A model generated the notes under the pieces. It searched no databases and was not told the DNA's origin. It worked only from the letters and a program-made list of their open reading frames with translations. 22,017 nt of DNA from a virus (taxonomy: Duplodnaviria > Heunggongvirae > Uroviricota > Caudoviricetes): IMG/VR virus record IMGVR_UViG_2585427734_000004; one strand, given 5' to 3'. A program made the translations under genes and the position numbers. Positions 1,242 through 17,756 of the stretch are shown here, piece by piece; within the stretch, counting starts at the first letter, position 1, and the number at the start of each line of letters is the position of its first letter.

Positions 1242-1433
1242 TTATCGTGAGTTTTTAGTACAGATTTTTTTGGATTTACTAATAGTTCCATCATTGCAAA
1301 CGAATTTGCCATCTGAGGTACAGTGAGAAACACCTCCCTTTTTCCCTGAGCAGGGATAATTTCTAGCATAGGTAGTTAGTGGGTTTAATAACAAAGAACA
1401 TGACAAAACCACAAAAAATACCTTACCAAGCAT
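1242..1433 (-). CDS. Small secreted cysteine-rich protein (63 aa), hypothetical moron
   Basis: GGGAGG RBS 7 nt upstream of the ATG; N-terminal hydrophobic signal-like segment ([23 protein letters not shown]) followed by 6 Cys; AT-rich, unlike the flanking phage genes. Confidence 0.45.
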
Positions 1434-1448
1434 AGTTTCCTCCCGGTA

Positions 1449-2105
1449 CTATTTAACATACTTGACTGTTAAACTTATAATTTTACCAATTATTTCAATG
1501 TCTTCTATCTTGCATTCGAAGGCTCTGTTTCCACCCTCGACGAAGATTCTTCCACCGGGTAAACGAGTAATGTCACGGATCGTTATTTCGCCATCAATAC
1601 TTATTACCCATTTACCATCACGTATATCATCAAATTCTTTATCACAAATAAATTCAGAATTGTTATCTGTGATGACAAAAGGTTTTTTAAACGTAGAGGG
1701 TAGAAATCCCTTATCAAAAATATAAAAACCGTCTTTCTGCAATGCTCCATCAGACAATAAATATTTTTCTACTTCTATAGTATTTGTATTTGCTGATGCT
1801 TGCTTTGAACCATGCCCTGTTGTTAGCCAATTAAGCGAGGTGCCCGTTTCAAGGGCGCACTGGATTACCCAATCTGCTGGAAAAATATCACGCATATAGC
1901 GCGTTGCCATGGTGCTCTTAGAAACACCTAAATGATCACAGAGAGCCTGACGAGTACCGAACCCATATGCTTCAACTAAACGTTCTATGGCTTTCTTACC
2001 GCCGCTATTGAAATCCACAAGTCCTCCAAAGAAATCCAAAATTCGTTGACAGATTCCAAAAGCGATCTTAAAGTTGAACCAGAAGTGTTCTTTTGGAGCC
2101 TTCAC
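1449..2105 (-). CDS. CI-like immunity repressor (HTH)
   Basis: Transcribed divergently from the early operon, directly upstream of int as in phage 186. HTH-like segment QALCDHLGVSKSTMATRYMRD. Apparent GTG start at 2105. Confidence 0.7.
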   Translation of the reverse strand: MKAPKEHFWFNFKIAFGICQRILDFFGGLVDFNSGGKKAIERLVEAYGFGTRQALCDHLGVSKSTMATRYMRDIFPADWVIQCALETGTSLNWLTTGHGSKQASANTNTIEVEKYLLSDGALQKDGFYIFDKGFLPSTFKKPFVITDNNSEFICDKEFDDIRDGKWVISIDGEITIRDITRLPGGRIFVEGGNRAFECKIEDIEIIGKIISLTVKYVK

Positions 2106-2163
2106 TACTAATCACGACAAACAACGGCTCGCCAAAAGCCATATCTAGAAGGAATGTTGCCTT
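2106..2163. promoter_or_regulatory. Divergent lysis-lysogeny switch region (repressor vs early operon)
   Basis: 58-bp intergenic region between divergent cI-like and apl/cox-like starts; operators not resolved. Confidence 0.4.
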
Positions 2164-2367
2164 ATGACACCTAACATTTCAATTACTCTGAATACACCAC
2201 ATGTCACAATCGAACGTTATAGCGAACTGACTGGCCTTTCTATTGATACGATTAACGACATGTTGGCTGATGGCCGACTACCTCGTCATCGTCTTCGTAA
2301 AGACAAAAAACGTGAAAAGGTAATGATTAACCTGGCTGCTCTGACTGTTGATGCTTTGTCTGCTTAA
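2164..2367 (+). CDS. Apl/Cox-like small DNA-binding regulator / excisionase
   Basis: 67-aa basic protein, first gene of the rightward early operon opposite the repressor. Assignment is by position and size. Confidence 0.55.
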
Positions 2368-2431
2368 TAGACGTCTATTTTCGCAATAAGACGCTGAGTT
2401 CGATTTTGCGATAAGTTCGGAGTTGAAAACC

Positions 2432-2941
2432 ATGTTTGATTACCAAGTTTCCAAACATCCACATTTTGATGAAGCCTGTCGTGCATTCGCACTGCGCCAC
2501 AATCTGGTGCAACTGGCAGAACGTGCGGGCATGAATGTGCAGATTCTGCGGAACAAGCTGAACCCAGCTCAACCTCATTTATTAACCGCACCAGAAATCT
2601 GGCTGCTTACCGATCTGACTGAAGATTCAACGTTGGTAGATGGTTTTCTGGCACAGATTCATTGTCTGCCATGTGTACCGATTAATGAGGTAGCAAAAGA
2701 GAAACTGCCACATTACGTCATGAGTGCAACCGCAGAGATCGGGCGTGTTGCTGCAGGTGCGGTATCTGGCGATGTAAAAACCAGTGCAGGTCGTCGTGAT
2801 GCTATCAGCAGCATTAACTCTGTAACACGACTGATGGCGCTGGCGGCTGTTTCATTGCAGGCCCGTTTACAGGCTAATCCTGCGATGGCGAGTGCAGTTG
2901 ATACCGTGACTGGCCTCGGTGCTTCATTCGGTTTGCTGTGA
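2432..2941 (+). CDS. CII-like regulatory protein
   Basis: ORF after apl; ATG at 2432 with GGAG RBS (the track start at 2423 is TTG). Position and size match 186 CII. Confidence 0.55.
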
Positions 2942-2948
2942 GGTGCTT

Positions 2949-3245
2949 ATGCTGACGAAAGAACCATCATTTGCATCGCTGCTGGTAAAACAAAGCCCGG
3001 CAATGCACTACGGTCACGGCTGGATCATGGGTGAGGATGGTAAACGCTGGCATCCGTGCCGTTCACAAGATGAATTGCTGTCTGAATTGACCACGGGGAA
3101 ACGGAGAAAGTCAAAATGTATGCAGCGGAAAGTGAAGTGGATTATCAGTTTCGTTACAGAGGGGAGAGTTATTCAGTACCTGAAGATGATTTGCTCTGTT
3201 GTTATCCGTCGTTGTCGGGCGATGGCAGTTACTTTTTCACGCTAA
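2949..3245 (+). CDS. Hypothetical early protein (its 3' part overlaps the next ORF in another frame)
   Basis: ATG 2949 with GTGAGG RBS. The first ~55 aa look protein-like; the remainder overlaps ORF 3116-3340 and looks like an out-of-frame read. Confidence 0.3.
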   Translation: MLTKEPSFASLLVKQSPAMHYGHGWIMGEDGKRWHPCRSQDELLSELTTGKRRKSKCMQRKVKWIISFVTEGRVIQYLKMICSVVIRRCRAMAVTFSR

Positions 3246-4232: not shown

Positions 4233-4531
4233 CAGGGGCTGTGCGTATCCATCAATTAAAAATTGCACCTAAGTATTTCAACGCTGTGGTTGCAGGTCAA
4301 AAGACGGCTGAACTTCGTAAAGACGATCGTGGCTATAAAGTTGGTGATGTTCTTTCTCTTTGCGAATGGAAGCATGGCGTATTTACGGGTAGGGAATGGG
4401 CCGCGGTTATCTCTCATGTGCTTCCGGTTAATGACGTGATGGCAGTTTCAGAACAATGGGTGATGCTATCAATTCGCTCATTAACCCCATTAGAAGCTTT
4501 AGGATATGTTATTGCAGGAGGTGCTGTATGA
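4229..4531 (+). CDS. DUF3850 / ASCH-like (PUA-fold) protein
   Basis: N-terminus [33 protein letters not shown] resembles the DUF3850 signature; ATG overlaps the upstream stop (ATGA). Confidence 0.6.
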
Positions 4532-5385
4532 GCACCATCCTGAAATGGGCGGGTAATAAAACCACCATTATGTCCGAACTGAAAAAATACCTTCCTGCTG
4601 GCACGCGACTGGTTGAACCTTTCGCGGGTTCTTGTGCTGTGATGATGGAGACGGATTACCCCAGCTATCTGGTTGCGGATATTAATCCTGATTTAATCAA
4701 CCTCTATAAAAAGGTTGCTGCTGATTGTGAGGCGTTTATATCTCGTGCCAGAGCTTTATTTGAGGAAGCAAACAGAGAGGTGGCTTATTACAACATAAGG
4801 CAGGAGTTTAATTACTCCACTGAAATTACTGATTTCATGAAAGCGGTATATTTTCTGTATCTCAATCGTCATGGTTACCGTGGGCTATGTCGCTATAACA
4901 AGAGCGGGTATTTCAACATTCCCTACGGTAATTATAAAAATCCGTATTTCCCTGAAAAAGAAATTCGCGCATTTGCAGAGAAAGCCCAGCGGGCAACGTT
5001 TATCTGCGCCAGCTTTGATGAAACGCTGGCGATGTTGAAGGCGGGGGATGTGGTGTATTGCGATCCGCCTTATGACGGTACGTTTTCCGGCTATCACACT
5101 GATGGCTTCACTGAAGATGACCAGTATCACCTGGCATCCGTTCTTGAACATCGATCATCTGAAGGTCATCCGGTCATTGTTTCTAACAGTGACACATCCC
5201 TGATCCGTTCGCTGTATCGCAATTTTACTCACCACTACATCAAGGCAAAACGCAGCATCGGCGTGGCAGCTGGTGAGAGTAAATCTGCAACAGAAATCAT
5301 CGCTGTTTCCGGGCCGCGCTGCTGGGTAGGATTTGATCCTTCGCGTGGCGTGGATTGTTCCGTCGTGTACGGAGTGCGTGCATGA
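4528..5385 (+). CDS. dam: DNA adenine methyltransferase (Dam-like, N6-adenine MTase)
   Basis: LKWAGNK...[12 protein letters not shown]-binding motif and DPPY catalytic motif; start overlaps the upstream stop. Confidence 0.85.
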
Positions 5386-7796
5386 GCCATGCTGATATGA
5401 ACAACTGCAGCGGCTTTAACGAGGTCGCCGCAGCATTCTCATGGAACAGCCCGAAAAAGGCCATTAACCCTTATCTGGACCCGGCGGAAGTTGCGCCGGT
5501 TTCTGCGCTTTCAAACCTGATCACTCTGTACGCTGCCGATAACGAGCAGGAACAACTGCGCCGCGAGGCACTGAGTGATCAGGTCTGGGAGCGTTATTTC
5601 TTTAATGAATCCCGTGATCCTGTCCAACGCGAAATGGAGCAGGATAAGCTAATTAGCCGGGCAAAGCTGGCGCATGAGCAGCAGCGTTTTAATCCAGACA
5701 TGGCCATTCTGGCGGACGTCAACGCCCAGCCTTCCCATATCAGCAAGCCGCTGATGCAACGTATTAAATACTTCAGCAGCCTGGGCAGGCCAAAGGCTTA
5801 TTCCCGCTATTTGCGTGAGACGATTAAGCCATGCTTGGAACGACTGGAGCATGTACGCGACAGTCAGCTATCCACTTCTTTTCGCTTTATGGCAAGCCAT
5901 GAAGGGCTGGACGGCCTGCTGATCCTGCCTGAAATGAGTCAGGATCAGGTGAAACGCCTGTCCACCTTGGTAGCTGCGCATATGAGCATGTGCCTTGATA
6001 CAGCTTGTGGCGATTTGTATGCCACCGATGATGTTACGCCAGAAGAAATCCGCAAGACATGGGAAAAGGTGGCAGCGGAAACCCTGCGTCTGGATGTTAT
6101 CCCGCCTGCGTTTGAGCAACTCTGTCGGAAAAGAAACCGCCGTAAACCCGTGCCTTATGAACTCATTCCGGGTTCGCTGGCGCGTATGTTATGCGCCGAC
6201 TGGTGGTATCGGAAATTATGGAAGATGCGTTGCGAATGGCGGGAAGAGCAGTTGCGTGCTGTTTGCCTGGTCAGCAAAAAAGCATCTCCCTATGTCAGCT
6301 ATGAAGCTGTGATGCATAAACGTGAGCAGCGCCGTAAGTCGCTGGAGTTTTTCCGTTCTCATGAACTGGTGAACGAAGACGGCGACACGCTGGATATGGA
6401 AGACGTGGTAAACGCCAGCAGCAGCAACCCTGCGCATCGCCGCAATGAGATGATGGCCTGTGTTAAAGGTCTGGAGCTTATCGCGGAAATGCGTGGTGAC
6501 TGCGCCGTTTTCTACACCATCACCTGTCCGTCACGTTTCCATTCCACGCTAAATAACGGCAGGCCCAACCCGACCTGGACAAATGCGACGGTAAGACAAA
6601 GCAGTGATTATCTGGTCGGTATGTTTGCTGCATTTCGTAAGGCGATGCACAAAGCCGGATTACGCTGGTATGGCGTGCGGGTGGCTGAGCCGCATCATGA
6701 CGGTACAGTTCACTGGCACCTGTTGTGTTTTATGCGCAAAAAAGATCGCCGCGCCATTACTGCTTTGTTGCGTAAGTTTGCCATTCGTGAAGACCGCGAG
6801 GAGCTGGGTAATAACACGGAACCACGCTTTAAGTCTGAGCTGATAAACCCGCGCAAAGGTACGCCAACAAGCTACATCGCGAAATACATCAGTAAGAACA
6901 TTGACGGGCGTGGTCTGGCTGGCGAGATCAGCAAGGAAACGGGTAAATCCCTGCGTGATAACGCCGAATACGTTAATGTCTGGGCGTCTCTGCATCGTGT
7001 TCAGCAATTCCGCTTCTTTGGCATTCCGGGGCGTCAGGCTTACCGTGAACTGCGATTGCTGGCTGGTCAGGCGGCAAGGCAACAGGGTGACAAAAAAGCA
7101 GGTGCGCCGGTACTGGATAACCCGCGTCTTGATGCCATTCTGGCTGCTGCGGATGCTGGTTGTTTTGCCACCTACATCATGAAGCAGGGCGGCGTACTGG
7201 TTCCCCGTAAATATCACCTCATCAGAACCGCTTATGAAATCAACGAAGAGCCGACCGCCTATGGCGATCACGGCATTCGTATTTATGGCATCTGGTCACC
7301 CATTGCAGAGGGCAAGATCTGCACTCATGCAGTGAAGTGGAAAATGGTTCGTAAAGCCGTTGACGTTCAGGAGGCGGCAGCCGACCAGGGCGCTTGCGCC
7401 CCTTGGACTCGTGGCAATAACTGTCCCCTTGCTGAAAATTTGAACCAACAGGAGAAAGATAAATCAGCTGATGGGGACACTAGAACGGACATTACCCGCA
7501 TGGATGACAAGGAGTTGCACGATTACCTGCACAGTATGAGCAAAAAAGAGCGCCGGGAACTGGCAGCAAGGTTACGCCAGGTGAAGCCGAAAAGGCGTAA
7601 AGACTACAAACAGCGAATTACAGATCATCAGCATCAGCAGCTCGTCTATGAACTGAAGTCCAGAGGATTTGATGGCAGCGAGAAAGAGGTCGATTTACTC
7701 CTTCGCGGTGGCAGTATTCCGTCAGGAGCAGGCCTGCGTATCTTCTATCGGAACCAGCGTTTGCAGGAAGATGATAAGTGGCGGAACCTGTATTAA
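5382..7796 (+). CDS. A: Replication initiation protein gpA (rolling-circle, HUH endonuclease)
   Basis: ~804-aa ORF. HUH-like VHWHLL motif and paired tyrosines SYIAKYISK, as in P2 gpA; start ATG 5382 overlaps the dam stop. Confidence 0.85.
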
Positions 7797-7949: not shown

Positions 7950-8138
7950 ATGCAGGACTATTTTTTGGAGTCTTTGAAGCTCCAGCGCATTGATTTTTTT
8001 CTTAAGCTTGTAGCGGCTAGTGAATGTAGTGATGAAGAGAAAGGGCTGGCTCTGCAGTGGGTTTCTGAACTGACAGATGAACTCATGGCAAAAATCAGAA
8101 CCCACGAATACAACCGCTCAATGGATGTCATCAGCTGA
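7950..8138 (+). CDS. SOS-controlled small protein, possible Tum-like antirepressor N-terminal part
   Basis: ATG 7950 with GGAGG RBS, downstream of the LexA box. 186 tum occupies this position after gene A; identity is inferred from position. Confidence 0.4.
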   Translation: MQDYFLESLKLQRIDFFLKLVAASECSDEEKGLALQWVSELTDELMAKIRTHEYNRSMDVIS

Positions 8139-8148
8139 GGTGACTTTT

Positions 8149-8382
8149 ATGCGCATTGAAATAATGATCGATAAAGAGCAGAAGATTAGCCAGTCTACCC
8201 TGGACGCCCTTGAATCCGAGCTTTACCGCAATCTGCGCCCCCTGTATCCCAAAACGGTAATTCGCATTCGCAAAGGTAGCTCTAACGGTGTGGAACTGAC
8301 CGGACTGCAACTGGACGAAGAAAGAAAACAAGTGATGAAAATTATGCAGAAAGTGTGGGAAGACGACAGCTGGCTGCATTAA
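8149..8382 (+). CDS. DinI-like protein
   Basis: MRIEIMIDKEQ...LDALESEL...VWEDDSWLH follows the E. coli DinI pattern (MRIEVTIAK...IDALAGEL...TWESADDW); GAGGTGA RBS. Confidence 0.8.
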   Translation: MRIEIMIDKEQKISQSTLDALESELYRNLRPLYPKTVIRIRKGSSNGVELTGLQLDEERKQVMKIMQKVWEDDSWLH

Positions 8383-8516: not shown

Positions 8517-8540
8517 GCCCGCCAGAACTGTCGGGCTTTT
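8517..8540 (+). terminator. Weak intrinsic terminator-like hairpin
   Basis: gcccg-N10-cgggc followed by TTTT; short stem, so low confidence. Confidence 0.3.
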
Positions 8541-8585
8541 GCGTAGATCATGCAGGTGCATGAAAACCACTACATAAAGCGGGCA

Positions 8586-8605
8586 GGCGTGGCGGGGATA
8601 CGAGC
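8586..8605. other. Possible cos-site remnant
   Basis: GGCGTGGCGGGGA matches, from memory, the first 13 nt of the 186/P2 19-nt cohesive end; the next 6 nt diverge. Not verified against a reference. Confidence 0.3.
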
Positions 8606-8612
8606 GCGCGCC

Positions 8613-8641
8613 TTGCCTTATATCTATTTGTTCATTAAAAT
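8613..8641 (+). promoter_or_regulatory. Putative sigma70 promoter for the retron ncRNA/RT operon
   Basis: TTGCCT (8613-8618), 17-bp spacer, TAAAAT (8636-8641). Confidence 0.3.
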
Positions 8642-8647
8642 CATTAT

Positions 8648-8850
8648 GCTCTTTAGTGTAGGAACATTGGTTCCAGCCGGGTGATTAGCCAGGCTTAAAT
8701 TTATTGTCCGGTTTAGGGTTGCGAAAGACACAGATTTCTCCTTCGCATCCCTGCCCGGGGCAGATATGCGAAGGAGAAATCTGTGTCTTTCGCTGTCTTT
8801 AGTGAAGAGTCAAAGCGCTATGTAAAGTTGCATAGCGCTTTGGTTTTAAG
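8648..8850 (+). ncRNA. Candidate retron msr-msd non-coding RNA
   Basis: Structured non-coding region immediately 5' of the RT: small hairpin ggaac-attg-gttcc (8661-8674), the 73-nt perfect palindrome (8721-8793) and a 12-bp-stem hairpin (8811-8842). Boundaries and the a1/a2 repeats are not resolved. Confidence 0.5.
8721..8793. repeat. Perfect 28-bp inverted repeat with nested ctgccc/gggcag palindrome (73-nt hairpin)
   Basis: 8721-8748 gcgaaagacacagatttctccttcgcat is the exact reverse complement of 8766-8793; read directly from the sequence. Confidence 0.9.
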
Positions 8851-8859
8851 AGGGGTTAT

Positions 8860-9795
8860 ATGCAACTAACTTCTAAAATTATCAGTAAGTTTAATTATAA
8901 TAGATTAGCTTTCCAATTACTTTTAAATGAGGCCCCCAAAAAATATAAAGTTTATTATATTCCTAAACGTGGCGCAGGTTTTCGGGTGATAGCTCAGCCG
9001 ACAAAGGAACTAAAAAACGTACAGAGATTTATAGTATCTTTGCTACAGCCAAAGCTGCCTGTTCATCATAAGGCAATGGCATATGAATATAAAAAAAGTA
9101 TTAAAGATAATGCATTGTTGCATAAAGATAATAATTATATTCTTAAAATGGATTTTCAGAACTTCTTTAATAAAATTAAACCTGATATATTTTTCTCGAA
9201 ACTTGAGAACACAGGGCTGAAATTGGATTCATTTGATGAGAACACCCTACGTAATTTGCTTTTTTGGCGTCCGGGAAAAAAGAGAAGTACAACGTTGATA
9301 TTAAGTGTAGGGGCGCCAAGCTCACCATTTATTAGTAATTTTGTTATGTATGACTTTGACAAGAGTCTTGATGATTGGTGCCGTAACAATGGTATCACTT
9401 ATTCAAGGTATGCAGATGATATAACTTTTTCAACTAATATTAAGGATATATTGTGCAGGGTTCCTAAGGTGGTAAAAAAAATGTTGTCGCTCCATGTTCC
9501 CGGTCTATCAATCAATGAATCTAAAACAATTTTTACATCGATGGCTCATAATCGGCACGTGACTGGTGTAACACTTACACCTCAGGGCAATTTATCAATT
9601 GGTCGCGATCGTAAAAGGATGCTGTTTGCAAAGATTCATAAATATTCTTTGGGACTCTTATCTTCCGAAGAAATAAATAAAACCAAAGGGATGATTGCGT
9701 TTGCAAATTATTTGGAGGGTGATTTTTTATTAAGGTTACAAAAAAAATATGGTTGTGAGTTAATAACTAAGTTCCTGATGGAAGGAAACAAATAA
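8860..9795 (+). CDS. Retron-type reverse transcriptase
   Basis: 311 aa; YADD catalytic motif (SRYADDITFS), upstream FQNFFNKI, RT-like GAPSSPFISN; AAGAGGGG RBS; AT-rich codon usage. Confidence 0.85.
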   Translation: MQLTSKIISKFNYNRLAFQLLLNEAPKKYKVYYIPKRGAGFRVIAQPTKELKNVQRFIVSLLQPKLPVHHKAMAYEYKKSIKDNALLHKDNNYILKMDFQNFFNKIKPDIFFSKLENTGLKLDSFDENTLRNLLFWRPGKKRSTTLILSVGAPSSPFISNFVMYDFDKSLDDWCRNNGITYSRYADDITFSTNIKDILCRVPKVVKKMLSLHVPGLSINESKTIFTSMAHNRHVTGVTLTPQGNLSIGRDRKRMLFAKIHKYSLGLLSSEEINKTKGMIAFANYLEGDFLLRLQKKYGCELITKFLMEGNK

Positions 9796-11429
9796 TGATA
9801 AATAAAATGAATTTAGAGACTTGCTATGTTGATTTTTTAGAGTTGGAATCACATGTGATAAACGAGGATTATTTGAAGGAGTCTGTTGAGCTTCAAAAGC
9901 TAATATCTACTTTAAATGAGAGTAAGTTTCATTTAAATAAAATAGGTATACATGATTTTAAACGGATAAGAGAACTACAGATTTCCTTAGAAGATGATTT
10001 GACTGTTTTTGTCGGGGATAACGGATTCGGTAAAAGCACTATTTTGGATGCAATAGCAATTGTTTTGAGTTGGTTGAGATCAAATATTGAAAAGGAGAGT
10101 AAGCCTGGTACTTATATTAAAAGCCATGAAGTTAATAACTCTGTTGATGTTGAGTATGCATCAATTGATGCAAATATAAAACTTAAGGACTTTAATACCA
10201 GTATTTTGATTACTAAAGCGAAAGAGGGGGCATATTATTCTAGAAATAATGAATTGTTGGAGGTAAAAAAACTTGCAAGTATTTATAGACTTGTGAATAA
10301 ATATGTTGATAATGCAAGCTTGCCTTTGATGGCATATTATTCTATTGCGCGTTCTTATATAGGCGGTGGGGTTGATAGGAAAAGAAAAAATGCTAAAACT
10401 AAAACTGTATGGTCAAAATTCGATGTGTATGATGAAATCGAGTTTGACAGAAATGATTTTACCGATTTTTTTCAATGGCTTGTATTTCTTCATAACAGAG
10501 CTTCACAAGAGAAATTGAGTGAGTCACAAACGACAATCAATGCGTTATTTTCAGATATTCAAAGTTTGAAAGCAACATTAACTCAACTATCTGCGATTGA
10601 TAATATTGATTCAACAGTTATAAAAGGTTTAGAGCTTTCGCTTAAAGAAAAATTGAACTACATGAAATCTCTGCAATCAGGAGAACATAAGTTTAATAAT
10701 GCAGTATCACTTTATGATAGTGTTATAAATACCATTCTAAAGTTCTTGCCTGAATTTCAGTGGATTAAGCTTGTTTATGGTGATGATGATTATAAGATTA
10801 TCCTTAAAAAAGGAGAGGTTGAATTAGATGTTCAACAGTTGTCTCAAGGTGAGAAAACTATATTTACTTTAGTTGGTGATTTGGCTCGACGTTTAATTTT
10901 ACTTAATCCAAATTTATCTAATCCTCTATTGGGATATGGGATTGTTTTAATTGATGAAATTGATTTGCATTTGCATCCGCAATGGCAACAGACAATTATT
11001 GAGCGTTTGACATCTACATTCCCAAATGTTCAATTTGTAGTTACTACCCATAGCCCACAGGTTTTATCCACTGTTAGCTCTCGTTCAGTGCGTATTCTAC
11101 AGGAAGTGGAAGTAGATGGTGTTAATGATTTGATAGTGTCTCACCCCGACTATCAAATAAAAGGTGTTAGTAATCAGGATGCACTTTTATATGGAATGAG
11201 AACTGATCCTATACCCTCTACTAAAGAAAATGGTTGGCTTGAAGAATATAAAAAATTGGTTGAGCTTAATCGTTATAGCAGTGACGAGGCTCTTTTGTTA
11301 AGAGAAAAAGTTATTAAACATTTCGGATTAGACCATCCTTTAGTTCAAGAGTGTGATGATCTTATATCTGTTTTGGAGTTCAAAAATAAGATAAATCAGC
11401 ACTTTTCTGGAAGTAAGGATGTAAAATGA
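9795..11429 (+). CDS. ABC-type ATPase (Septu PtuA-like) retron effector component
   Basis: Walker A GDNGFGKST, signature LSQGEK, Walker B VLIDEIDLHLHP, H-loop VVTTHSP, with a long helical insert; start overlaps the RT stop. Confidence 0.8.
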   Translation: MINKMNLETCYVDFLELESHVINEDYLKESVELQKLISTLNESKFHLNKIGIHDFKRIRELQISLEDDLTVFVGDNGFGKSTILDAIAIVLSWLRSNIEKESKPGTYIKSHEVNNSVDVEYASIDANIKLKDFNTSILITKAKEGAYYSRNNELLEVKKLASIYRLVNKYVDNASLPLMAYYSIARSYIGGGVDRKRKNAKTKTVWSKFDVYDEIEFDRNDFTDFFQWLVFLHNRASQEKLSESQTTINALFSDIQSLKATLTQLSAIDNIDSTVIKGLELSLKEKLNYMKSLQSGEHKFNNAVSLYDSVINTILKFLPEFQWIKLVYGDDDYKIILKKGEVELDVQQLSQGEKTIFTLVGDLARRLILLNPNLSNPLLGYGIVLIDEIDLHLHPQWQQTIIERLTSTFPNVQFVVTTHSPQVLSTVSSRSVRILQEVEVDGVNDLIVSHPDYQIKGVSNQDALLYGMRTDPIPSTKENGWLEEYKKLVELNRYSSDEALLLREKVIKHFGLDHPLVQECDDLISVLEFKNKINQHFSGSKDVK

Positions 11430-12109
11430 AATATCTATCTAGGCAAATGCCAGGGCCTTCCGTTCTTAATAAATTTGACTATAGGAGGGATGATTGGAAT
11501 TCCCTATCATCAAATGATAAAAAAGAAATATGGGAAGAAATAATAAAAATGCAAGGTAAATTATGTGCTTATTGCGAGAAAAAAATAGAGCATCATAAAA
11601 GTGGTGACAAAAATAAAGTTGAGAGGCATATTGAGCATTTTTACAGGAAAAGTTATTACAAAAATTTAACTTTCGAGTGGTCTAATTTGTTTGGCTCATG
11701 TGGTGAGCCGCAAAGGTGTGGGTTTTATAAGGATAAGCAAAAATATAACGATGATGATTTAATTAAAGCTGATAGACAAAATCCAGATGTTTTTTTCCAT
11801 TTTTTGGAAAATGGTGATGTTCATATTAGAGAAGGCTTGAATGAGAAAGAACACAAAATGGCAGAGGTTACGTTAAGAGTATTTAACTTAAACCCGTCCT
11901 CAGGAGGAGTCAAGGCGGAAAGAAGACGTGCAATAGAATTAAGCATGACATTAATAAAGGAACTGGTCGGATGTGCATCTCAGCTTATTGAATCAGGATG
12001 TGAAATTGAAGATGTTAGATCTATGGTCTTTGATGAGTTTAAAAAGAATGTAAAAGATAGATGCTTTACCACTGCGATAAAGCATGTTTTTGAGAATAGA
12101 ATGCCTTAA
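11426..12109 (+). CDS. HNH endonuclease (PtuB-like) retron effector component
   Basis: CAYCEKK...HIEHF HNH-like Cys/His motifs; ATGA overlap with the ATPase stop. Confidence 0.75.
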   Translation: MKYLSRQMPGPSVLNKFDYRRDDWNSLSSNDKKEIWEEIIKMQGKLCAYCEKKIEHHKSGDKNKVERHIEHFYRKSYYKNLTFEWSNLFGSCGEPQRCGFYKDKQKYNDDDLIKADRQNPDVFFHFLENGDVHIREGLNEKEHKMAEVTLRVFNLNPSSGGVKAERRRAIELSMTLIKELVGCASQLIESGCEIEDVRSMVFDEFKKNVKDRCFTTAIKHVFENRMP

Positions 12110-12190
12110 AGGTTAGAGGGATGTATATATAATTAATCTATATTATATTCTGAGAAATTGATAATATGCATCCCTATCCACTGATTAAAT

Positions 12191-12652
12191 TCATGGATTT
12201 TTTTTTTGTAGAGGTACTAATTCATTTGTCACAAAAACCTTACTAGCTTTCTCCACATCCCCAAACCCCCCAACATTATTCGGCATAATCCCCATCATTT
12301 GCGGCGGCACACGGTGTGCCGCCATCATGTCGTCCCGGCTCACGTTCTTGATATTCAGAAATTCATCCTTCGCTGCAACTTCTGACAACGGGATGATCTG
12401 AAGCCCGTCCTTTTTGCCGTTAGGCGAGTACATAAACAAGTTACGGAAGTTGCCCGGTCCTTTGGCGCTTTTCATCGCGTTGCGGAGGTTGTTCACATCC
12501 TCCTGGTTCTGCGCGGCGTCAGTCATATACATGATGAAGCCTGCATGACTGCCGTTAATGTAATACTTGCGGCGGAACAGCGTGGCGGACTCGTTGAGCA
12601 GGGCTGACGGAATGGCAGAAAGATAAGTTTTTTCTAACGGAGCACGGCTCAT
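12191..12652 (-). pseudogene. Capsid portal (gpQ-like) C-terminal fragment; terminase gene absent
   Basis: Minus-strand ORF whose 5' end overlaps the O start codon, leaving no P-O intergenic promoter; no Walker A, so not a terminase N-terminus. The Q assignment is by position and elimination. Confidence 0.35.
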
Positions 12653-13484
12653 GACAGTGAAAGCAAAGCGTTTTCGCATCGGGGTGGAAGGTGCCACCAC
12701 CGACGGACGCGAAATCCAGCGTGAATGGCTGGAACAGATGGCAGCCAGCTACAACCCGGCGGTGTACACCGCGCTGATTAACCTTGAGCACATCAAGTCT
12801 TATCTGCCGGACAGCACCTTTAACCGCTACGGCAAGGTGACGGCGCTGTTTGCTGAAGAAATCACGGAAGGTCCGCTGGCAGGCAAGATGGCATTGTATG
12901 CCGACGTTGAGCCAACGGAGTCCCTGGTGGAACTGGTGAAAAAAGGCCAGAAATTATTCACCTCTATGGAAGTCAGCCCGAAGTTCGCTGATACGGGCAA
13001 AGCCTCCCTGGTTGGCCTGGCCGCCACTGATGATCCCGCCAGTCTGGGTACGGAAATGCTGACATTCAGCGCCAGTGCAGCCCATACCCCGCTGGCAAAC
13101 CGCAAGCAGAATCCCGCCAATCTTTTTACCGCTGCAGAGGAAACGGTGATCGAACTGGAAGAAATCCAGGAGGACAAGCCGTCCCTGTTTGCCCGTGTCA
13201 CGGCGCTGTTTACCAAAAAAGAGCAGTCCGATGACGCCCGGTTCTCTGATGTGCATAAGGCCGTGGAGCTGGTCGCCACTGAGCAGCAGAACCTGAGCGC
13301 ACGCACCGAAAAATCCCTGTCTGAGCAGGAAGAACGCCTGTCTGAGCTGGAGACTGCTCTGCAGGAGCAGCAAACCGCCTTAAACGAACTGGTGAATAAG
13401 CTGAGTCATGAAGACAGCCGCCAGGACTACCGCCAGCGTGCAACAGGCGGTAACGCCCCCGCTGACACTCTGACCAATTGCTGA
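12651..13484 (+). CDS. O: Capsid scaffolding protein gpO
   Basis: N-terminus FRIGVEGATTDGREIQ...INLEH...SMEVSPKFADTGK...LVGLAATDDPASLGTE matches recalled P2 gpO (FRIGVEGDTCDGR...INLEH...LVGLAVTDDPASLGTE). Confidence 0.8.
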   Translation: MTVKAKRFRIGVEGATTDGREIQREWLEQMAASYNPAVYTALINLEHIKSYLPDSTFNRYGKVTALFAEEITEGPLAGKMALYADVEPTESLVELVKKGQKLFTSMEVSPKFADTGKASLVGLAATDDPASLGTEMLTFSASAAHTPLANRKQNPANLFTAAEETVIELEEIQEDKPSLFARVTALFTKKEQSDDARFSDVHKAVELVATEQQNLSARTEKSLSEQEERLSELETALQEQQTALNELVNKLSHEDSRQDYRQRATGGNAPADTLTNC

Positions 13485-13500
13485 TGGAGCACAAAACCTG

Positions 13501-13890
13501 ATGAAGAAGAATACCCGCTTTGCTTTTAACGCTTACCTGCAGCAACTGGCACGTCTGAACGGTGTGGCAGTTGAAGAACTGTCCAGCAAGTTCACTGTAG
13601 AGCCGTCTGTGCAGCAGACGCTGGAAGACCAGATCCAGCAGTCCGCCGCTTTCCTGACGCTGATTAACGTCACGCCAGTGCCTGAGCAGTCCGGTCAGCT
13701 GCTGGGGCTGGGTGTTGGCAGCACCATTGCCGGAACCACTGACACCACCGCGAAAGAGCGTGAACCTGTCGATCCGACGCTGATGGTCGATGTGGAATAC
13801 AAATGCGAACAGACCAACTTTGACACGGTGCTGACCTACGCGAAGCTGGACCTGTGGATCAGGCAACGCCGCGCACTAACGGTGATCTGA
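13501..13890 (+). pseudogene. N: Major capsid protein gpN, N-terminal ~120 aa only
   Basis: TRFAFNAYL...NGV...SKKFTVEPSV...LDLW matches the recalled P2 gpN N-terminus (TRFKFNAYL...KKFTVEPSV...LDLW), then diverges and stops; full gpN is ~357 aa. Confidence 0.6.
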
Positions 13891-14845: not shown

Positions 14846-14937
14846 AGATTCATGCTTTTGCTAGCTTCTACAAGGTTTTATGCTTCTAAACACTGTATGT
14901 TTAATTTGACATATAACTATTTGTACAAGCGGTGAGT

Positions 14938-16161
14938 ATGAAAAAGCAAGATGAGTCCCCCAAAGCTGATAAATCAAATTTAGATAAAAGTGAGTCTGAA
15001 CCACCAAAAGCGAACTCTATGGCAGATGCCATGGCCATAGCGGCAGAGGTTGCTACGACAGCAACGTCAGTTCAAACATCAACCTTTGCAATTATCGCGG
15101 ATTTTCTACGTTCAGGTGGTATAGAAAAACTAACTTCAAATGCTATCAAAAATTTAGAAATAAAAGTAAAGGGCCATTCTCAAGCGACAAGAACTACGGT
15201 ATTGAGGAACCTGAAGACCTCTTTCAAAGAGGAGAATTTAGTTCTTGTTTTAGGTGCTGGCATTTCTTTAGATTACAGCATACCAACATGGAGTGAATTA
15301 TTAAAGCGGCTATTGGCAAGAGCTTTGGATGATAAAAATGAAAATCAGAAAATGGTATCGGTTTTGTTTAATGAGGTTTTCGGTCCGAACGCACTCATAG
15401 CAGCCAGATATCTAAAACTACACTTTGATGGTATTAATACTCCCTTGGAAAAAGAAATTCAGCATGTTTTGTATGAATATTATCAGGAGGAAGAAAGCAG
15501 TACATTGAAAGCAATCAAGAAATTGTGCATATCGGCAGGCAAGTCACCAGGTCTAGATTCCGTTATTACATATAACTATGATGATATTTTGGAACAGACA
15601 TTAACTAGAGCTGATGTTGGTATAAAGTATAAGGTGATTTCAAAGACGGGACAGCATGCAAAAAATGATGAACTGCCGATCTACCATGTGCATGGCTATC
15701 TCCCATTGCAGGGGAAAGTTGAACTCGATGACACGCTAGTCCTTTCTGATGAAAGCTATCATAGGCAATACATGGATTTATACCATTGGAGCAATATGGT
15801 TCAGTTGAATAAATTCAAAGATGGTAATTGCCTGTTTGTTGGTCATTCCTTTACAGATCCAAACCTCAGAAGGTTGATGGATACAGCCAAAAAACTTAGA
15901 GGGAATGATTCTAAACCTCATTATTTAATTAAGTGTAGACATTCGAAAGAAGATGTGATTGCTAATATTCAAAGAATTGTTAGTGACTCAAGAAATGGAT
16001 TTGATAATAAACTGAATATTAATGAGGATGCAATCGCGACCTCTCTTTTACAGACAGTGCATACTTTTGAAGAAATCGATGCTAATTCATTTGGCGTGAA
16101 TGTTATTTGGATCGACTCTTACGATGAGATTGCACCAATACTTAATGATCTAACACAATAA
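14938..16161 (+). CDS. SIR2-family (SIR2_2-like) protein, candidate NAD+-depleting defence effector
   Basis: LVLVLGAGISLDYSIPTWSELL (GAGxS), VITYNYDDILEQ (TxNYD) and PIYHVHGYL (HxHG) motifs; low-complexity K/E/S/A/T-rich N-terminal ~90 aa; AT-rich gene in a GC-rich tail cluster. Start could also be GTG 14932 or ATG 15019. Confidence 0.75.
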   Translation: MKKQDESPKADKSNLDKSESEPPKANSMADAMAIAAEVATTATSVQTSTFAIIADFLRSGGIEKLTSNAIKNLEIKVKGHSQATRTTVLRNLKTSFKEENLVLVLGAGISLDYSIPTWSELLKRLLARALDDKNENQKMVSVLFNEVFGPNALIAARYLKLHFDGINTPLEKEIQHVLYEYYQEEESSTLKAIKKLCISAGKSPGLDSVITYNYDDILEQTLTRADVGIKYKVISKTGQHAKNDELPIYHVHGYLPLQGKVELDDTLVLSDESYHRQYMDLYHWSNMVQLNKFKDGNCLFVGHSFTDPNLRRLMDTAKKLRGNDSKPHYLIKCRHSKEDVIANIQRIVSDSRNGFDNKLNINEDAIATSLLQTVHTFEEIDANSFGVNVIWIDSYDEIAPILNDLTQ

Positions 16162-16238: not shown

Positions 16239-16454
16239 ATGAACGCTCAACTAACAGAAATCATGCGCCTTATCACCAATCTGATCCGCACTGGTGTAGT
16301 CACCGAAGTGGACCGGGAAAACTGGCTTTGTCGGGTGAAAACGGGCGACCTTGAAACCAACTGGATTAACTGGCTGACACTGCGCGCGGGCAAATCGCGC
16401 ACCTGGTGGAAAACTCACCATCGACTACGACTACACGCCAGTGCCGCCACTTGA
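16239..16454 (+). pseudogene. V: Baseplate spike gpV, N-terminal fragment
   Basis: [42 protein letters not shown] matches the recalled P2 gpV N-terminus (IRTGIIVETD...CRVQTG...WLQWLTHRAGRSRTWW), then diverges after ~60 aa and stops. Confidence 0.55.
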
Positions 16455-17420: not shown

Positions 17421-17756
17421 GTGGCAGACATCGCCACCATTTTTCACTGGCCGCCATCCGTTACTGACGTTATGCCGCTGGAGCAGATGGCAGAACAGGG
17501 GAAAGCATGGCCTCTGATTGAAGGCAGCGGCACGATTTACGGCATGTATGTGATTGAGGGACTGAATCAGACTAAAACGGAGTTTTTCCGCGACGGTATG
17601 CCGCGCCGGATTGAGTTCACCCTGTCGCTCAAACGGGTGGATGAATCCCTGTCCGATATGTTCGGTGATCTCAGTGCGCAACTGAATAATCTGCAGGAAA
17701 CGGCAACATCTGCTTTAAGCGATATCAGTAAAACGGTGGGAGGGCTGCTGTCGTGA
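17421..17756 (+). pseudogene. E' extension continuing into a tail-protein U-like C-terminal segment; tape measure gene T absent
   Basis: -1 frame relative to E with no stop from 17361 to 17756; ends in a GTGA overlap with the D start. Only ~130 codons lie between the E slippery site and D, where P2 has T (~815 aa) and U. Confidence 0.45.

Follow-up and report, generated by a model that had tools for sequence, protein, structure and literature searches.

A type I-A retron of the E. coli FORC_82 type as probable anti-phage cargo of a decayed P2/186-like prophage

Introduction

Which defence system is encoded between the cos site and the portal gene remnant of the prophage studied here, and is this copy likely to be functional? 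The window, i.e., the whole stretch of DNA analysed, comprises 22,017 nucleotides (IMG/VR record IMGVR_UViG_2585427734_000004). A first-pass annotation of the sequence had described a reverse transcriptase (RT) gene with ATPase and HNH nuclease genes behind it, and had proposed a Septu-associated retron of type I-A next to a possible cos site. Class membership is used here in the sense of the classification of Mestre 2020.

The block at 8860-12109 very probably represents the type I-A retron of E. coli FORC_82, in a copy that looks functional and is carried as anti-phage cargo by a decayed P2/186-like prophage. This analysis established what each part of the cassette is and that it is intact, as well as the architecture of the non-coding RNA (ncRNA) with covariation, and the genomic setting. 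A retron of the FORC_82 type is already published with structure and mechanism (George et al., Nat Commun 2025, PMC12475279), and the finding in the window is thus not new. Its discovery value is small, as cryo-EM structures are available for the same retron and its trigger and target are defined. The main value is that of a positive control: sequence alone sufficed for the correct recognition of a type I-A retron with its ncRNA, of the cos site and of the setting in a hotspot.

Genome setting

The cassette lies where it had been placed at first reading, with the genes for gpA (5355-7796, Phage_GPA 5.7e-128) and DinI (8077-8382, 1.3e-22) on its left and a portal remnant on its right. The suspected cos site is real, as judged by homology to phages 186 and P2, and is located at 8586..8604, just left of the point at which the block had been taken to begin. 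The 19-nt cohesive-end sequence of the window, GGCGTGGCGGGGATACGAG, matches the annotated cos of phage 186, GGCGTGGCGGGGAAAGCAT, at 15 of the 19 bases, the first 13 being identical. In collinear order, the window follows the right end of 186 through 8585 and the left end of 186 from 8586. The retron cargo starts about 10-20 nt to the right of cos.

Other P2-like phages are homologous to the window up to about 8611-8625 and again from about 12173-12201. The contrast between an AT-rich block and a GC-rich phage backbone, which had also been remarked on, is seen in a G+C content of 0.31-0.36 across 9001-12000 versus 0.52-0.58 in the flanking phage genes. The cos-proximal hotspot between gpA and gpQ of P2-like phages has been defined and is known to carry retrons (Rousset 2022, PMC9122126). 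The cassette is cargo of this hotspot; the foreign composition and the breaks in homology agree with the earlier description of a region that carries variable defence genes.

The right border of the hotspot, outside the retron, is formed by a remnant of the portal gene (gpQ) on the minus strand at 12191..12626, of which only the C-terminal part is left. Only part of the Phage_portal model is matched by the corresponding open reading frame (12191-12700, minus strand), with a score that stays under the cutoff of Pfam. Its homology to the portal genes of other P2-like phages begins at about 12173-12201 and extends to 12626, where it is truncated in comparison with intact prophages, and the reading frame of the remnant is shifted by an extra T at 12198. 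Relative to E. coli SC475, a deletion joint at 12624-12626 has removed the N-terminus of the portal protein together with the large terminase.

In total, four deletions have cost the prophage about 16 kb of morphogenesis genes. Genes for packaging, head, lysis and tail are gone from the 19-kb remnant, in which the retron and a SIR2 gene survive. As a weaker point, the fact that four independent deletions spared both defence cargos makes the prophage look like one domesticated as a defence island. The FORC_82 retron occupies the same position, on the right side of cos, and its P2-like prophage is likewise found at the rcdA/ybjL site. The FORC_082 prophage has a full portal gene and a TIR gene, in place of the truncated portal and the SIR2 gene of the window, and the two sets of deletions differ.

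Non-coding RNA and promoter

The region upstream of the RT gene, which had been noted as highly structured, folds far better than expected from its composition. The minimum free energy of the leader (8640-8860) is -108.6 kcal/mol, versus -59.9 +/- 4.8 kcal/mol for shuffled sequences (z = -10.3; 0 of 200 shuffles as good). A search with covariance models, as had been suggested, returned matches to the Rfam families msr (RF00170; 8648-8712, 45.9 bits, gathering score 52, E 5.3e-6) and STnc400 (8714-8851, 73 bits, gathering score 80, E 3.3e-13), with both scores just under the gathering scores. Since RF00170 is limited to the msr and derives from other types of retron, the assignment of the ncRNA is carried by a covariation test. 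This test used an alignment of the window with nine other type I-A loci (ten in all). Bases were paired in 94.8% of the cells, and compensatory changes were found in 23 of 41 pairs, a level reached by none of 500 shuffles; slid controls were far lower, with 39-48% paired.

The retron ncRNA (msr-msd) was thus located at 8648..8810 on the plus strand, on the combined evidence of Rfam, the fold, covariation and identity to FORC_082. Its a1 repeat (8648-8655) pairs with the a2 repeat (8803-8810). The branching or priming G at 8656 lies directly 3' of a1 and is invariant in all ten loci. Two msr stem-loops follow (8661-8674 and 8675-8695), and then the msd template (about 8713-8802), within which a long hairpin spans 8721-8792. 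If the RNA starts at C8649, A8655 becomes position 7 and G8656 position 8, in agreement with the 'A7/G8' of PMC12475279; the msd is predicted to be about 90 nt long, which likewise agrees with the msDNA of about 90 nt reported there. Rfam mir-2068 also matched the msd hairpin on its minus strand (29 bits, gathering score 99); this was rejected as a chance match to a long hairpin.

A consensus scan found a sigma-70-like promoter candidate at 8613..8641 on the plus strand (TTGCCT, 17-nt spacer, TAAAAT; 9 of 12 matches). Transcription from this candidate would begin at about 8648, which fits the start of a1. The published FORC_82 construct relied on native promoters within about 550 bp upstream (PMC12475279).

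Terminator-like hairpin

Between a2 and the RT ribosome-binding site (GAGGGG, 8850-8855, plus strand), the fold contains a terminator-like hairpin of 15 bp followed by GTTTT (8811..8844, plus strand). Nine of ten related type I-A loci have a counterpart, unrelated in sequence, and the STnc400 model of Rfam takes in this hairpin. The hairpin with its U-tract may be a partial intrinsic terminator, an attenuator that yields a discrete ncRNA of about 200 nt in excess over the mRNA for RT, PtuA and PtuB; this suggestion is tentative and somewhat less probable than its opposite. If it is true, the attenuator would set the stoichiometry in a system that is lethal when msDNA is too scarce. The Salmonella STnc400 precursor of about 190 nt would then be the same kind of transcript, and STnc400 of Rfam would be a retron ncRNA wrongly classed as an sRNA. 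The record of use for STnc400 is Sittka 2008; the full text of PMC5001712 was found to contain STnc4000 only, and not STnc400. The hairpin between ncRNA and RT goes undiscussed in the structural paper (PMC12475279).

Protein-coding genes

Three intact open reading frames on the plus strand make up the coding part of the cassette, exactly as first described: a YADD-type RT of 311 aa (8860..9795), an ATPase of 544 aa (9795..11429) and an HNH nuclease of 227 aa (11426..12109). RT and ATPase genes overlap by 1 nt (TAATG), ATPase and HNH genes by 4 nt (ATGA).

The RT carries the retron-specific motifs NAxxH (NALLH, residues 84-88) and VTG (234-236) along with its YADD catalytic site (184-187). It is 100% identical to chain E of PDB 9N69. 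Its best PADLOC profile is RT_I-A (4.9e-131), followed by RT_II-A (5.2e-111), and it scores 321 bits against the NCBIfam model retron_St85_RT (cutoff 235). A reading as a DRT- or Abi-type defence RT in an operon with Septu, behind a hairpin that is not reverse-transcribed, is scarcely credible; it can point to the generic RVT_1 domain of the protein and to nothing else. The Drt2, Drt3a, Drt4 and AbiA models reach only 22-44 bits (cutoffs 200-450), far under their cutoffs, so that the RT does not fall with the non-retron families that had been named as the alternative. Both retron motifs and a canonical, covarying msr/msd architecture are present, and gels as well as cryo-EM showed msDNA for this very sequence (PMC12475279). 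The NCBIfam scores and the published msDNA for an identical RT and ncRNA refute this reading.

The second gene encodes a PtuA-type ATPase of the SMC/ABC family with Walker A (74-81), LSQGE (349), Walker B (D387) and Q454. It matches the PADLOC profiles PtuA (2.3e-193) and ATPase_I-A (1.1e-151) as well as Pfam AAA_15, AAA_21 and SMC_N. Because its score of 471 against the NCBIfam Ec78-PtuA equivalog stays under the cutoff of 500, the ATPase is classified, as far as profiles go, as a member of the PtuA family and not as an Ec78 equivalog. The third gene encodes a PtuB-type HNH nuclease with CAYC (47-50), HIEH (68-71) and the catalytic H71. It scores 160 bits against NCBIfam PtuB (cutoff 150) and 106 bits against TIGR02646 (cutoff 52), and matches PtuB (6e-118) and HNH_I-A (5.2e-57) in PADLOC.

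Type I-A models are the top PADLOC match for all three proteins, which, together with the canonical msr-msd ncRNA and near-identity to PDB 9N69, bears out the proposed type I-A retron. A type II-A retron, suggested by the second-best RT profile, was rejected on account of the PtuA and PtuB effectors and the higher score of the RT_I-A model. A stand-alone Septu system (PtuAB) was rejected because an RT with an msr-msd ncRNA lies directly upstream, the RT gene overlapping the ATPase start. Proteins of the cassette are already labelled as retron components in NCBI naming.

Comparison with characterised type I-A retrons identified the system as that of FORC_82 (PDB 9N69). Over 3.67 kb of DNA (8532-12197), only 10 SNPs separate the window from E. 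coli FORC_082, none of them in the ncRNA or the promoter region. At the protein level (PDB 9N69/9N6B/9N6C), the RT agrees at 311 of 311 residues and the HNH nuclease at 226 of 227, with D61 in the window and G in FORC_82 (9N69 chain F). The ATPase differs by three substitutions over 543 aligned residues (2-544), namely E156, V346 and V416 in the window versus G, I and I in FORC_82 (9N69 chain A). All residues whose mutation mattered in PMC12475279 are kept under the same numbering (YADD; ATPase D387, Q454 and V73; HNH H71 and G44). Public contigs with the exact protein alleles number 149-718 (about 150 for ATPase and HNH, 718 for the RT). No near-identical match to the cassette was found in the INPHARED phage collection. 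This result carries no information, since bacterial genomes, in which it is prophage cargo, are the only place where the element is known.

By analogy, the window allele with its four conservative-looking substitutions is presumed to behave as the FORC_82 allele. It is improbable that the retron, although known by descent, is a silent or inactive passenger here, disabled by the substitutions or by loss of context. Such a passenger would fit a prophage with internal deletions and a frameshifted portal remnant, and expression of the window allele in its own host is not guaranteed because the surrounding prophage is decaying. It would also fit the amino-acid differences from the tested allele, among them G156E of the ATPase. 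Against these points stand the intact, overlapping reading frames with conserved catalytic and tested residues, and an ncRNA, promoter-like site and 300 bp of upstream sequence that are identical or nearly so to those of the active construct. The wide occurrence of the alleles is unlike that of a private degenerate copy. Moreover, loss of RT activity was reported to be toxic in the FORC_82 system (PMC12475279), and partial decay would therefore be selected against.

The G156E change alters the charge in the msDNA-facing IS1 region of the ATPase. Single alanine substitutions in this region had no effect (PMC12475279). The natural allele, with four substitutions relative to the tested FORC_82 allele, is of minor interest in its own right.

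Proposed mode of action

Production of msDNA, assembly of the complex, trigger and target are borrowed from the near-identical system of PMC12475279 and would apply to the window by analogy. The FORC_82 retron, whose ncRNA and RT are identical to those of the window, produces an msDNA of about 90 nt, seen on urea-PAGE and in cryo-EM. Its complex consists of four ATPase, one RT and one HNH subunits (about 364 kDa). It defends against T3 and T5, and the mutations D387A and H71A abolish defence. Phage flap nucleases trigger the system by degrading the msDNA, after which the HNH nuclease cleaves tRNA-Ser (all PMC12475279).

In the window, a promoter just right of cos would drive an ncRNA of about 200 nt and the three genes. 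The RT would prime from the 2'-OH of the branching G (8656) and copy the msd template from about 8802 down to 8713 into a hairpin msDNA of about 90 nt. This msDNA 'harpoon' would recruit two homodimers of the PtuA ATPase, which would keep one PtuB HNH nuclease inactive. Upon infection, phage flap exonucleases (that of T3; D15 of T5) would degrade the msDNA, and the HNH nuclease would become active and cleave tRNA-Ser. Translation would stop and phage replication would be aborted.

A canonical Septu-like action, in which the released PtuB nuclease degrades phage or host DNA and loss of tRNA-Ser is secondary, is very improbable. Homology of PtuA and PtuB to the PtuAB of type I Septu (PDB 8EE4, 8EE7; ATPase E 2e-38, HNH E 3e-5) lends it some weight, as the Septu HNH nuclease is a reported DNase with a structure almost identical to that of the retron HNH nuclease. 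In addition, tRNA-Ser decreased only about two-fold, and the authors allow tRNA cleavage to be a mere first step (PMC12475279). Microscopy with the near-identical protein, however, showed nucleoid compaction and not DNA degradation, and HNH-dependent cleavage of tRNA-Ser was observed by tRNA-seq and Northern blots (PMC12475279); the related Ec78 PtuAB cleaves tRNA-Tyr. Cleavage of tRNA-Ser is thus the preferred reading for the HNH nuclease of the window. Type I Septu shares the C-terminal 'claw' that holds the HNH nuclease, but is without RT, ncRNA and msDNA.

Comparison with known retrons

The window RT belongs to the 'retron St85 family' of NCBIfam. Retron St85 (Retron-Sen2) is from Salmonella, and its ncRNA is filed in Rfam as STnc400, the model matched by the msd and the downstream hairpin of the window. 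St85 has a different effector, the RcaT toxin, and is without PtuA and PtuB; no gene for an effector of this kind was found in the window cassette.

A locus of Vibrio cholerae ATCC 14035, presumably retron Vc95, shares the architecture of RT, ATPase and HNH genes, with an RT 47% identical to that of the window. The same architecture is found in retron Ec83 (PDB 9E8Z; RT E 5e-79). Both have the same ncRNA plan, with a conserved msr and a covarying msd hairpin, but differ from the window in the sequence and length of the msd and in their hosts.

Retron Ec78 (Retron-Eco7; PDB 9KJX, 9L7P, 9NNB, 9VHE) is of type I-A with the same gene order and type of complex. Its RT is about 49% identical to that of the window (288 aligned columns), and PtuA and PtuB match with E values of 1e-74 and 1e-31 to 1e-35, respectively. 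The Ec78 HNH nuclease likewise targets a tRNA, with tRNA-Tyr depleted, whereas the FORC_82 type cleaves tRNA-Ser. Ec78 is evaded by T5 through its tRNAs and ORF75, while the retron of the FORC_82 type is not evaded in this way.

Cassette genes and protein identity

The three consecutive plus-strand genes proposed in the first-pass annotation agree exactly with a six-frame ORF list: a reverse transcriptase (RT) of 311 aa (8860-9795), an ATPase of 544 aa (9795-11429) and an HNH protein of 227 aa (11426-12109). The layout is that of translational coupling, as had been claimed; the RT stop and ATPase start overlap as TAATG, and the ATPase stop and HNH start as ATGA. The block is indeed AT-rich, with a GC content of 0.31-0.36 over 9001-12000 versus 0.52-0.54 in the phage replication gene A (gpA) and 0.54-0.58 in capsid genes. 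The cassette, as an observation, is confirmed and far beyond chance.

The best PADLOC models were RT_I-A for the RT (4.9e-131), PtuA (2.3e-193) and ATPase_I-A (1.1e-151) for the ATPase, and PtuB (6e-118) and HNH_I-A (5.2e-57) for the HNH protein. Pfam domains were RVT_1 in the RT and AAA_15/AAA_21/SMC_N in the ATPase. The RT scored 321 bits against NCBIfam retron_St85_RT (cutoff 235) and the HNH protein 160 bits against NCBIfam PtuB (cutoff 150); the ATPase reached 471 against the NCBIfam Ec78-PtuA equivalog, slightly under the cutoff of 500. At the sequence level, the PDB matches to 9N69, the structure of the published type I-A retron of Escherichia coli FORC_82 (FORC_082), are decisive for identity. 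The RT is identical to chain E (311/311), the ATPase differs from chain A by three substitutions, and the HNH protein differs from chain F by one. The coding differences from FORC_082, window residue first, are E156/G, V346/I and V416/I in the ATPase and D61/G in the HNH protein. All residues mutated in the published work (PMC12475279) are kept with the same numbering: RT YADD; ATPase D387, Q454 and V73; HNH H71 and G44.

Among 5,426 complete E. coli genomes searched, FORC_082 and three others carry DNA 99.7% identical to 8600-12150. A base-by-base comparison of 8532-12197 with FORC_082 gave only 10 SNPs, none of them in the ncRNA or promoter region. In public collections the exact window RT occurs on 718 contigs, the ATPase allele on 149 and the HNH allele on 158; related members are carried by Salmonella enterica.

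Non-coding RNA

The region 5' of the RT had been described as highly structured, and its 221 nt fold at -108.6 kcal/mol, against -59.9 +/- 4.8 for dinucleotide shuffles (z = -10.3). In a covariance-model search upstream of the RT, 8648-8712 matched Rfam msr (45.9 bits, E 5.3e-6) and 8714-8851 matched STnc400 (RF02058, 'Gammaproteobacterial sRNA'; 73 bits, E 3.3e-13), with both scores slightly under the respective gathering scores. In the fold, the a1 stem (8648-8655) pairs with a2 (8803-8810) and is followed directly by an unpaired G (8656), two msr hairpins (8661-8674 and 8675-8695) and an msd hairpin of 28 + 5 bp (8721-8792), all on the plus strand.

For an independent test, twelve loci with RTs 45-50% identical were fetched from Vibrio cholerae, Shewanella, Cellvibrio, Methylococcaceae and others, and the upstream regions of nine of these were aligned with the window. 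The msr core does not vary, nor does the G after a1; the msd hairpin varies in sequence with its pairing kept. Paired cells make up 94.8% of the total, and 23 of the 41 pairs show both-sided changes; none of 500 shuffles attained any of these measures, and shifting the 3' partners by 1-3 columns reduced pairing to 39-48%. The template from msr to a2 spans about 90 nt (about 8713-8802), in agreement with the published ~90-nt msDNA, and an RNA start at C8649 would make A8655 and G8656 positions 7 and 8, which fits 'A7' and 'priming G8' (PMC12475279). From a sigma-70-like site on the plus strand (8613-8641; TTGCCT, 17-nt spacer, TAAAAT), at the right distance 5' of the ncRNA, we infer a candidate promoter.

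Between a2 and the RT ribosome-binding site, the plus strand has a 15-bp hairpin and then GTTTT (8811-8844). At the equivalent place, nine of 10 related type I-A loci have a hairpin, unrelated in sequence, scored as a strong hairpin and T-rich tract just 5' of the RT start (the window and the fetched loci L005, L009-L013, L015 and L016). The element looks like a putative attenuator or partial intrinsic terminator, which would free a discrete ncRNA of ~200 nt, and a reasonable hypothesis is that such a partial terminator would set the ncRNA:mRNA ratio. No terminator is mentioned in the FORC_82 structural paper (PMC12475279). The STnc400 match takes in both the msd hairpin and this downstream one. 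Salmonella STnc400 maps between STM3844 and STM3845 and yields a precursor of ~190 nt and a stable RNA of ~55 nt (PMC2515195), a pattern in line with a retron ncRNA that is freed as a discrete transcript before processing. The Rfam family appears to be an St85-type retron ncRNA filed as an sRNA.

Relation to known systems

By sequence analysis, the cassette shows every type I-A retron hallmark that in silico methods can check, the only misses being the Rfam msr and NCBIfam PtuA equivalog thresholds, each narrowly unreached. The Septu-associated type I-A reading of the first-pass annotation is upheld by the PADLOC I-A models and the 9N69 identity, and the system is already known: the closest known system, the FORC_82 retron, is the same retron. 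Ec78, a homologue, has the same architecture (RT about 49% identity, PtuA E 1e-74, PtuB E 1e-31 to 1e-35) but a specificity for tRNA-Tyr, versus tRNA-Ser in the FORC_82 type. Two more type I-A relatives are Ec83 and a V. cholerae locus. Septu has the effectors in common but lacks RT and msDNA. The St85 family belongs to the same RT clade and has the same ncRNA plan but different effectors.

The mechanism is that published for the near-identical FORC_82 system (George et al. 2025, PMC12475279) and would hold for the window cassette by analogy. There, the RT produces an msDNA 'harpoon' on which four ATPase subunits (two homodimers) assemble, and a single HNH protein is gripped by the C-terminal claw of one ATPase dimer. 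RT active-site mutants were unclonable, which points to toxicity of unleashed effectors. Defence against T3 and T5 was abolished by ATPase D387A or HNH H71A, and T3 escape mutations fall in the phage exonuclease. Flap nucleases of T3, T5 and T7 degrade the msDNA, leading to HNH-dependent growth arrest; T7 escapes. Activated HNH cuts tRNA-Ser, and the nucleoid is compacted, not degraded (all PMC12475279).

Insertion site

The 19 nt at 8586-8604, GGCGTGGCGGGGATACGAG, match the cos annotated in phage 186, GGCGTGGCGGGGAAAGCAT, as well as the cos of P2. Up to 8585 the window runs collinear with the right end of 186, and from 8586 on with the left end of 186, so the suspected cos site is real. Homology to other P2-like phages ends at ~8611-8625 and returns inside the 3' end of gpQ, the portal gene, at ~12173-12201, which places a cargo of about 3.55 kb between cos and gpQ, an interval of only about 170 bp in P2 and 186. 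The cos-proximal gpA-gpQ interval is a defence hotspot of P2-like phages, retrons included (Rousset et al. 2022, PMC9122126), consistent with the variable cargo site proposed earlier. Within the 3' end of the HNH gene, an 11-bp hairpin (12061-12085) reads on the minus strand as a terminator followed by a T-run; by analogy with tQ/tW of P2/186, it could terminate the convergent portal operon.

Prophage remnant

The same retron is found in E. coli SC475, where it lies on a ~36.5-kb prophage, apparently complete, in the rcdA/ybjL interval. Four clean internal deletions set the window's prophage apart from that of SC475; they measure about 2.4, 3.2, 7.0 and 3.3 kb, each joint with a 3-5 nt overlap. 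Lost at the joints are the portal N-terminus and large terminase (12624-12626), the capsid C-terminus through lysB (13855-13857), baseplate, fibres and sheath (16408-16412) and the tape measure (17478-17480); together the deletions cost packaging, head, lysis and tail genes. The remnant retains int, the CI repressor, Dam methylase, gpA, DinI, cos, the retron and a 409-aa SIR2 gene. The deletion set of the FORC_082 prophage differs. Near the 3' end of the portal gene remnant, a homopolymer run has one extra T at 12198 (10 T versus 9 in FORC_082), which shifts the frame; this may reflect either true decay or a sequencing error in the homopolymer.

The SIR2_2-domain ORF (14932-16161, plus strand) follows gpS and is AT-rich (GC 0.37-0.39). 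Its PADLOC matches, to SIR2 modules of the LmuA and ThsA types, are weak (about 1e-20), and it has no partner gene. In SC475 this gene is also present, flanked by virion morphogenesis and baseplate V genes. The ORF looks like a second defence cargo, consisting of one gene, at another variable prophage site. The Dam-type orphan DNA adenine methylase (4456-5385, plus strand; PADLOC oMTase 6.5e-111) lies directly 5' of gpA in the early operon, as is usual in this phage group. In the SC475 prophage, the integrase-CI interval (1335-3060 of the SC475 locus, L004) holds two additional hypothetical genes of 173 and 400 aa, absent from the window and FORC_082, and is possibly a further variable cargo site.
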